A stretch of DNA of 64,000 nt, from the IMG/VR virus record IMGVR_UViG_3300010158_000051, positions 1-64,000 of that record; one strand, given 5' to 3'. Shown in pieces: positions 56,753 through 60,380 of the stretch. A program made the position numbers and the translations under genes. Positions within the stretch are counted from its first letter, which is position 1; every line of letters starts with the position of its first letter. Source of the stretch: a virus. The notes under the pieces were generated by a model that worked only from the letters and a program-made list of their open reading frames with translations, did no database searches and was not told where the DNA came from.

Positions 56753-57238
56753 ATGCAAACATTCCTTCCTTATGGTGATTATGAAGCCTCAGCTCAAACA
56801 CTAGATAATAAAAGATTAAATAAACAAATACTTGAAGGATATCAAATTCTTAAAGTATTATCTAACGCTTCGCCTTCAGGTGCTTGGCGTAATCATCCTG
56901 CAGTACTAATGTGGAAAGGCTCAGAGAAAGAACTTCTTGCCTACCTTGATCACATGATTTATGAAGCTAATTGGCGGGGTATCAAGACAGATAAAAATGC
57001 AGCTAACATTAAAGAACTTAAAAGACAATATGGTAATCAATGGGGTGAAAACATTCCATCTTGGATGGAGGATGTAGAAAAACTTAGACGTGTAACTACT
57101 ACTCATCAAGTTAATCTATTTAATAAAGATTCAATAGCGTATGCTGGATTTAAACAATCTTTGAACAGTTCATATAATCAACCATGTTGCCCAAAATGTC
57201 TATACTTTTGGCCTACTCATCCATTAAAGAAAAAATAA
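56753..57238 (+). CDS. Pyrimidine-dimer DNA glycosylase/endonuclease V-like (MSMEG_6728-like)
   Basis: MQTFLPY...LDNKRLNKQILE..QIL...W.NHPAVLMW.G...YFWP; promoter TTGACA(56717)-18 nt-TAGACT. Confidence 0.85.
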   Translation: MQTFLPYGDYEASAQTLDNKRLNKQILEGYQILKVLSNASPSGAWRNHPAVLMWKGSEKELLAYLDHMIYEANWRGIKTDKNAANIKELKRQYGNQWGENIPSWMEDVEKLRRVTTTHQVNLFNKDSIAYAGFKQSLNSSYNQPCCPKCLYFWPTHPLKKK

Positions 57239-59305: not shown

Positions 59306-59593
59306 GCTTCGTAATACTTGCAGTGATTATATTGATTTTAATTGCAGTTGTTCCGTTAGATAATGATAAGTAAAGGAAATATGGATTATTTAAAAAAGAT
59401 TCCCACCGAATGTAAGCACAAGATAACAGTTGTAGATCAAAAACTTATCTGTGCTTATTGTGGTGAAGCAATTAAACTATAATAAGATAAATATACATTA
59501 TATAAGCTATATTCTATGGTTTAAAGTGGAGTAAAGTGGAGTATTGTGGAGAATAAATACAGTAGTTATTATTTATTTAACAATTCATTATAT

Positions 59594-59607
59594 GTTTCAC
59601 GTGAAAC
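59594..59607. promoter_or_regulatory. parS: parS centromere-like site
   Basis: Perfect GTTTCACGTGAAAC palindrome (15/16 match to TGTTTCACGTGAAACA). Confidence 0.75.
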
Positions 59608-59634
59608 CATGTTATAGAACGATACATGATGGCG

Positions 59635-59985
59635 TTCGTAATGTCAAGTCCATATACGCATAAAATATGTGATTAATATCACACATAATATGCCTATAAA
59701 ATTGGACAAAATAGGACAAAATGTACACAAAATAGGGTTATTTTGTCCATATATTGAGATATATTGTGTGAATTTGATCACATTTAATGTATCTCTATTT
59801 TTGTATACATTATATGATCAACATCACACTTTATATGCTTGACTTCCAGCGAAATTTATGCATCTTCGTAATGTCTGCATATTTGAATATACATTTATAT
59901 AGACATATGTTTCTCCAGGTATTATTTGGTATGTTCGTAATGTCTGGAAAGTTCCAGCGAAATTCCCGCCCCTTCGTAATGTCTG
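59635..59985. repeat. TTCGTAATGTC x4 and TTCCAGCGAAATT x2 direct repeats
   Basis: Copies at 59635, 59865, 59934, 59973 and at 59844, 59952. Confidence 0.85.
59668..59828. promoter_or_regulatory. Cluster of CRP/GlxR-type boxes (59668-59683, 59767-59782, 59813-59828)
   Basis: Two perfect TGTGA-N6-TCACA and one TATGA-N6-TCACA. Confidence 0.65.
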
Positions 59986-60021
59986 GATCTGAGCTACGCC
60001 TGCTCCTGCGTTTGGAAATGC

Positions 60022-60058
60022 GAGAGACCCCCACACCCAACATGTGGAGGTCTCTCTT
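60022..60058 (-). terminator. Hairpin ending the minus-strand gene block
   Basis: GAGAGACC-C-CCACA...TGTGG-A-GGTCTCTC. Confidence 0.5.
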
Positions 60059-60086
60059 GGACTTGGCGGAAAAGCCTGAACGCCCG

Positions 60087-60380
60087 TTATGTCAGCATGA
60101 ACTCATTCATTGGTTCATCTTTTCTGACCATTCCCGTAAGGCCCAACTCCTCTAAGGAATACTTTAATTGCTTACACATCTGGTGAATTTCTACCAGTGG
60201 CATTGGTACCATTTCTTGGTCAGCCATTAGGATTACATAGTTAACTAAATAACCTAACATGGCCTCATTTACGTAGCGGTTTTCTCTTGTCATTTTAAGT
60301 GCAAGAATAGCGGGACTAACTCTTTGGTCCGCCAACCCTGCAGTAATCTTGTCATGTAGTTTTTGGTCAACGCTTGCCAT
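60087..60380 (-). CDS. Hypothetical protein
   Basis: GAGGAG RBS; coupled ORF. Confidence 0.6.
   Translation of the reverse strand: MASVDQKLHDKITAGLADQRVSPAILALKMTRENRYVNEAMLGYLVNYVILMADQEMVPMPLVEIHQMCKQLKYSLEELGLTGMVRKDEPMNEFMLT

Follow-up and report, generated by a model that had tools for sequence, protein, structure and literature searches.

Two converging gene blocks in the genome of an uncultured lake phage are separated by an ORF-poor, non-coding hub of 604 nt. The hub occupies positions 59483–60086 of the window, which is the whole stretch of DNA that was analysed; the window comprises the initial 64 kb of an IMG/VR record of 77,819 bases (G000), which has a CheckV completeness of 72%, and the genome of the phage is approximately 108 kb long. 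The plus-strand genes end at position 59482 and the minus-strand genes at position 60087, which results in convergent transcription at the hub. The genes that flank the hub are mostly ORFans. A search for relatives of the 132-residue protein encoded on the left flank found none, and a search of GenBank phages with the DNA of the hub produced no match. The last plus-strand gene before the hub (59363–59482) encodes a zinc-ribbon protein with a CxxC...CxxC motif, which has a length of 39–50 residues and is encoded in this last position in all nine flanking contigs. A weak match of this protein to the TFIIB zinc ribbon (E 0.006) was obtained in contig L005 only.

The left part of the hub contains three GTGGAG repeats with an exact period of 10 bp (59526–59551, plus strand), which are kept in all related hubs; the third of them, TGTGGAGAA, differs from a DnaA box at a single position. 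The repeats form the left border of a hypervariable slot (59552–59612) of fixed length, and the right border is formed by an iteron with the sequence TTCGTAATGTC (59635–59645, plus strand). The record contains four exact copies of the iteron, all of them within the hub, with the second, third and fourth located at 59865–59875, 59934–59944 and 59973–59983 of the plus strand. Because the exact copies are confined to the hub, the TTCGTAATGTC units were rejected as genome-wide promoters. The segment 59740–59850 is a core with CRP-like TGTGA-N6-TCACA boxes. The closest relative in IMG/VR, contig L002, has a syntenic hub, and approximately 100 nt of its core are the same as in the window (100% identity in alignment columns 297–400), with the adjacent 97-residue protein being 81% identical. 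Twenty-five nucleotides of the core (59761–59785) are invariant in both clades of related hubs. At 60022–60056, where the minus-strand operon has its 3′ end, there is a GC-rich inverted repeat, which is a probable terminator. Its position is conserved and it contains compensatory differences between the clades; it failed a terminator scan, as it has no T run.

The slot of the window contains GTTTCACGTGAAAC, a perfect 14-bp palindrome at positions 59594–59607, which is a chromosomal-type parS core that agrees with the actinobacterial parS in 14 of 14 positions. The corresponding 16-mer, TGTTTCACGTGAAACC (59593–59608), agrees with TGTTTCACGTGAAACA in 15 of 16 positions, with the outermost A replaced by C. 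With these numbers of agreeing positions, the core and the 16-mer match the chromosomal-type parS inverted repeat tGTTNCACGTGAAACa. The parS of Mycobacterium smegmatis is exactly GTTTCACGTGAAAC, that of Corynebacterium glutamicum is TGTTNCACGTGAAACA, and the 14-mer fits the consensus of C. glutamicum and Streptomyces (PMC7022226). The first-pass annotation of the window had described a perfect palindrome at 59593–59608 and had identified it as the parS consensus of Actinobacteria and Firmicutes; both statements are borne out, the coordinates being those of the 16-mer. Among 156 sites on viral contigs of IMG/VR, which were sampled without bias, the canonical outer A is present in 82% of the exact 14-mers, and an outer C beside the 14-mer is rare (5% of parS flanks).

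The palindrome is present in a single copy in the 77,819-base record, also when one mismatch is permitted, and the 64-kb window contains no further copies of GTTTCACGTGAAAC with two or fewer mismatches. The number of exact copies expected from base composition is 3e-4 per record, which is close to the earlier estimate of approximately 2e-4. This expectation alone is weak evidence, because approximately 250,000 windows were scanned, among which tens of chance 14-mers are expected. Conservation is stronger evidence than rarity. The hexamer CACGTG is found once in 77.8 kb, where composition predicts 9.1 copies and a Markov model 3.5, and its sole copy is inside the parS palindrome.

Palindromes of 6 bp that contain GC are strongly avoided in the record. 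There are no copies of CCATGG (9.2 expected), GACGTC (3.0 expected) and ATCGAT (2.2 expected), and one of CACGTG (3.5 expected), which suggests pressure from restriction systems.

Readings of the palindrome as a hairpin, a terminator or a structured RNA were rejected. The RNA fold at the palindrome is weak (−5.2 kcal/mol) and not meaningful (z = −0.22), the terminator scan detected no intrinsic terminator, and a scan of the hub against Rfam returned sub-threshold miRNA noise only. The palindrome was also considered as the junction of two CRP boxes, which was rejected on reading the sequence.

Measured from the first GTGGAG repeat up to and including iteron 1 (window 59526–59644), the hub segment has a length of 118–119 nt in nine distinct and diverged hub sequences. 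The fixed span points to a constraint on spacing or phasing. Approximately 50 nt in the middle of the slot cannot be aligned between cassette types. Cassette P, which contains parS, is present in the window and in contigs L009/L010, L011, L005/L012 and L236. The AT-rich cassette N is present in L002, L004, L007/L008, G051 and G003, and the slot of G050 contains another AT-rich sequence. Cassettes P and N are both found in each of two diverged clades, and contigs L011 (P) and L003 (N) are 90–95% identical over 11 kb while carrying different cassettes. Therefore, the cassette is exchanged by recombination.

The slot of G035, a genome that is 99% complete, contains two perfect DnaA boxes and the span of 118–119 nt is extended to 125 nt. 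Because two DnaA boxes occupy this slot, the slot evidently acquires sites for proteins of the host chromosome origin. The hub of G035 (locus L104, G035:C1:25281–28329, minus strand, positions ~1860–1970) has three perfect DnaA boxes, TTATCCACA, and two boxes with one mismatch, all of which are co-oriented and lie within approximately 100 nt. By comparison, G000 has no more than three perfect DnaA boxes, which are scattered over 78 kb. The cluster in G035 is strong evidence that its hub recruits host DnaA.

The hub has features of both origins and termini of replication. The hub-specific iterons, the AT-rich slot of fixed length and the cluster of DnaA boxes in the hub of G035 are origin-like, and the convergent transcription and the maximum of the cumulative GC skew at the hub are terminus-like. 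The polarity of the skew is that expected of a terminus; it may follow from coding-strand bias. Judging from these features, the hub resembles an origin-like or centromere-like nucleoprotein hub, and no stronger label is given to it.

A 22-mer from the conserved core retrieved ten metagenome contigs, five of which, representing three distinct sequences, contain the exact palindrome at the syntenic position; it is absent in the rest. An exact copy of parS was found in none of 50 DnaE relatives. Roughly two in three related hubs do not have the site, and the approximately ten hubs without it include three near-complete genomes. With the exception of L236, the contigs with cassette P were retrieved by probes other than the 14-mer.

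Five lineages contain cassette P (the window, L009, L011, L005 and L236), and their hubs are 59–88% identical, with identities of 35–87% in the neighbouring 97-residue protein, the lowest values of which are 54% and 35%. The longest exact string common to all five hubs is a 31-nt block (59585–59615) centred on the palindrome. It is followed by strings of 13 and 12 nt (iterons), and then of 10 and 9 nt. The four lineages that were retrieved without the palindrome as a probe share an invariant run of 34 nt (59583–59616), a length reached by none of 20,000 shuffles. The clades differ at seven of the approximately 24 positions that adjoin the block on its left and at none within it, which makes it less likely that the whole cassette was transferred very recently. 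In L236, the hub has diverged to about 60% identity and the neighbouring protein to 35%, and the block is intact. However, because the cassette moves between backgrounds, the identity of the block across the clades could stem partly from recent recombination rather than from purifying selection.

The phage family also has the site in a second context, in which it is intact in L247, and in G031 and L273 its central CG has decayed to TG. Therefore, the element has been gained, kept and lost. The decayed parS of G031 (locus L241) and L273 abuts an ORF with the motif CxxC...HFDH...CANCH, which by eye is HNH endonuclease-like, and L247 has a different sequence in its place.

The first-pass annotation had proposed a comparison of the syntenic locus in related phages, and had held that absence or degeneration of the site next to conserved flanks in close relatives would refute its interpretation. 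The comparison has two outcomes. In the five diverged P lineages the site is invariant, and retention is evident within this group. It is not evident across the family: in the closest relative, L002, the flanks are conserved and the hub contains no parS-like sequence with three or fewer mismatches, and the copies in G031 and L273 are the decayed ones. On the basis of these alignments, parS is an allele that is optional and can be swapped, rather than a feature of the family, and it is dispensable, being missing from most related hubs and decayed in two contigs.

The phage does not appear to encode a protein that would read the site. It had previously been noted that there is no parA or parB gene in the window, and the search of the rest of the genome extends this observation. 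No match to PF02195 (ParB_N) or PF13614 (AAA_31, ParA-type ATPase) was found in the whole 77.8-kb record, and no ParA and ParB genes defined by these families in 20 long relatives. ParB_N is similarly missing from the closest relative G001, from the 20 long relatives, three of which are 97–100% complete, and from three further parS-bearing relatives (G103–G105). The ParB_N searches covered about 25 records of the family at E values of up to 0.1–1. The part of the genome that is missing from G000 corresponds to 20.5–48.9 kb of the complete relative G051, and G103, which is of the P type, covers 19.3–73.5 kb of G051. Since the two P-type records jointly span the map of the G051 genome, the whole map is without a ParB gene. 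The phage thus combines the lack of its own ParA and ParB with a parS of the host consensus, as is the case for phi29. Element-encoded ParA and ParB adjoining a centromere were found neither in the record nor in its relatives, and the single copy of the site and the lack of a ParB_N gene differ from an array of the KorB/OB type.

A reader of another kind was sought among genes that accompany the site. Within 4.5 kb of the hub, there is no gene family common to the P contigs and missing from the N contigs. No P-linked gene was identified in the genome-wide comparison either, in which the small candidates are without a DNA-binding domain. The candidates shared by G000 and G103 and missing from G051 either occur in the N-type contig L003 as well or are tiny ORFans in which no DNA-binding domain was found. 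An unrecognised binder could be among the small ORFan proteins. The P-type contigs of clade B, and no others, contain a two-gene insertion between a coiled-coil gene and the zinc-ribbon gene (L005:501–2154, also in L012), which encodes proteins of 241 and 323 residues without a Pfam match. The genes of this insertion were rejected as parS readers, because they are absent from clade A and do not encode a DNA-binding domain.

The host of the phage is likely an actinobacterium. The record encodes a WhiB protein, a family that among 14 control genomes is present in Corynebacterium only, and a DnaE-type polymerase with 56% identity to the DnaE of large Streptomyces phages; these two features make an actinobacterial host plausible. 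No integrase or resolvase was found in the phage. Contigs L232–L234 carry WhiB proteins that are 81–82% identical to that of the phage and belong to MAGs labelled as Bacteroidetes, Omnitrophota and a cyanobacterium; one of the contigs is 109.9 kb long. They are probably phage genomes that were mis-binned into the MAGs. Identification of the host through WhiB homologues in bacterial genomes was abandoned, because the matches are probably such mis-binned relatives of the phage. The hub was not found by BLAST in the MAG that contains the WhiB homologue.

The best explanation of the palindrome is that it is a genuine chromosomal-type parS, which is an accessory allele in a sub-population of a freshwater actinophage family. 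On balance, we favour the view that it serves as an accessory docking site for host ParB. Since the phage has no ParB, it is most likely the ParB of the host that reads the site. Binding of host ParB and all the steps downstream of it are what we infer from the sequence. A host ParB dimer would nucleate on the single site with CTP, close as a clamp, and spread several kilobases across the hub. ParA and SMC of the host would then act on the phage DNA as their substrate. In slowly dividing hosts the phage would probably benefit by having its genomes positioned or partitioned, which amounts to a carrier state; the model is phi29, the DNA of which segregates into the prespore in a Spo0J-dependent manner. 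Because parS fills the spacer of a promoter-like element, ParB may also silence a leftward promoter of the hub.

In C. glutamicum, ParB has been shown to nucleate on one parS, which may also be an ectopic one, and from there to spread 9–16 kb to each side and to recruit SMC (PMC7083940). A single site is therefore sufficient in an actinobacterium for the ParB spreading and SMC loading that the first-pass annotation had ascribed to parS. It had further proposed that the phage may recruit host ParB, for example in a carrier state, or may titrate it. Recruitment agrees with the consensus sequence, the lack of a phage ParB, the constraint in the carriers and the plausible actinobacterial host; however, it would not apply family-wide. 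A more far-reaching idea, which we regard as speculative and rather unlikely, is that the slot is a socket for sites of host chromosome-origin proteins (DnaA boxes and parS), with which the hub imitates an oriC–parS neighbourhood. The ParB-less phage would then be maintained as a carrier-state episome by host ParABS and SMC in slow-growing, non-sporulating lake Actinobacteria, and the P and N cassettes would constitute a balanced polymorphism of persistence and rapid lysis.

It is possible, but rather unlikely, that the palindrome is an operator in a phage promoter that is read by a dimer other than ParB, either a phage ORFan or a host regulator, and that it came to be the same as parS by coincidence or secondarily. 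The minus strand of the hub contains a sigma-70-like promoter match, ATAACA-17 nt-TATAAT (59587–59615, 10 of 12 positions), the spacer of which is filled by the palindrome. This match covers nearly the same nucleotides as the invariant block of 31 nt, and the conserved unit may be a promoter with parS as its operator. The block is wider than the ~16-bp footprint of ParB; therefore, something besides ParB binding is constrained. The hub is also rich in other regulator-like sites, such as the CRP-like boxes and the GTGGAG repeats, and many of the neighbouring genes are ORFans. However, the chance that a conserved 14-bp palindrome would be the same as the parS consensus is approximately 1 in 4^7 (6e-5), and neither a P-linked gene nor a DNA-binding domain was found that would provide another reader. 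Promoter-like matches are no more common in the AT-rich hub than in shuffled sequences (6 compared to 5.2), and there is no gene downstream of the match on the minus strand. An operator would, moreover, be compatible with ParB as its repressor.

A reading that we consider doubtful is that the palindrome has no function and is a chance or hitch-hiking sequence in an AT-rich hypervariable spacer, spread by recombination among co-circulating phages, so that its invariance reflects a recent common origin. No part of the hub varies more than the slot, most relatives do not have the site, a decayed copy exists, and cassettes have been swapped between backgrounds as similar as those of L011 and L003. 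The tens of 14-mers expected by chance in the scan also fit this reading. By contrast, a recent common origin is difficult to reconcile with the seven clade differences next to a block that has none, and with the preservation of the block in L236 beside a diverged hub and protein. The palindrome contains the sole CACGTG in a genome purged of palindromes, and chance fails to explain why the exact site of a known protein is the most conserved element of the hub. A phage-encoded ParB-family protein or an analogous clamp (of the KorB/OB or P1/N15 type), located in an unsampled accessory region or too divergent for Pfam, is allowed for by the 72% completeness of G000 but is very improbable, given that no ParB_N was detected in the records of the family, including both P-type records that span the map, that such systems have many dispersed sites where here there is one, and that the site has the consensus of the host rather than a variant specific to the lineage.

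Host Spo0J-binding parS sites in phi29, a virulent Bacillus phage, were reportedly described by Meijer et al. in 2005. That a ParB-less phage borrows the parS reader of its host is already known from phi29, and the idea is not new. The genome of phi29 is described as containing five parS sites for host Spo0J, through which the host segregation machinery is used for entrapment in the spore, and Spo0A boxes that tie the phage to host regulation (PMC2731898). The docking of host ParB that we favour for the lake phage shares several aspects with phi29. Both phages carry a parS of the host chromosomal type without having a ParB of their own. Both have sites of other host regulators, which are the Spo0A boxes in phi29 and, by sequence, DnaA and CRP-like boxes in the lake family. 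The proposed role is also the same, in that a non-integrated phage genome would be carried by the segregation machinery of the host. However, phi29, a podovirus with a protein-primed genome of 19 kb, infects a spore-forming firmicute and has five sites, the gain of which is spore entrapment. By contrast, the lake phage has one optional site in a DnaE-encoding genome of ~108 kb and a probable actinobacterial host, and sporulation is not known to be involved. Binding of Spo0J to the phi29 sites has been shown, whereas binding of ParB to the site of the lake phage is predicted. By analogy, the lake case would represent the logic of phi29 in another phage family and host phylum; it differs in that the site in the origin-like hub is single and optional.

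The other systems that the site resembles differ from it in the location or number of sites, or in the source of the ParB. The chromosomal parS, ParB-CTP and SMC systems of C. glutamicum, M. smegmatis and Streptomyces have the identical 14-bp core; however, chromosomal parS sites are clustered near oriC beside parAB, whereas the lake site is viral, single and without par genes nearby. The P1 ParAB-parS, N15 SopAB and mycobacteriophage parABS systems also include a centromere-like site on a phage that may enable extrachromosomal maintenance. Unlike the lake phage, which has no par genes and a site of the host consensus, they have their own ParA and ParB and element-specific centromeres. The IncP KorB-OB network and the phage arrays of palindromes with ParB-like proteins are similar in that a site for the ParB family over a promoter-like element could be an operator. 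Such networks consist of many dispersed sites and a ParB-family protein encoded by the element, neither of which is present in the lake phage.

The exact 14-mer of parS is present in at least 119 viral contigs of IMG/VR (loci L113–L231). Among the matches listed, 21 of 118 parS loci have 2–5 sites each. A ParB_N match was found in 3 of 50 parS-bearing records, the other 47 being without a ParB gene, and in the records that are at least 90% complete the proportion without ParB_N is 9 of 11. Orphan parS sites seem to be common on these contigs; alternatively, some of the contigs may be host or plasmid DNA mis-called as viral. A 19-mer that includes the flanks of the lake-phage site was rejected as a special widespread motif, because its 42 matches fit several thousand ordinary parS sites. 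Orphan parS sites in phages may be under-described, and the result for the lake locus is incremental. If host ParB binds to the site, the trick of phi29 extends to a large and abundant family of lake actinophages, the hosts of which are not known to form spores. It would represent a general path to pseudolysogeny or a carrier state that requires neither an integrase nor partition genes. A ready comparison of the effect of a single parS is provided by L011 and L003, which carry the natural alleles P and N in near-identical backgrounds.

An ORF located upstream of the hub (window 56753–57238, plus strand) encodes a pyrimidine-dimer DNA glycosylase (PF03013, E 2.6e-18), and this denV-like UV-repair gene would fit a phage of surface waters.
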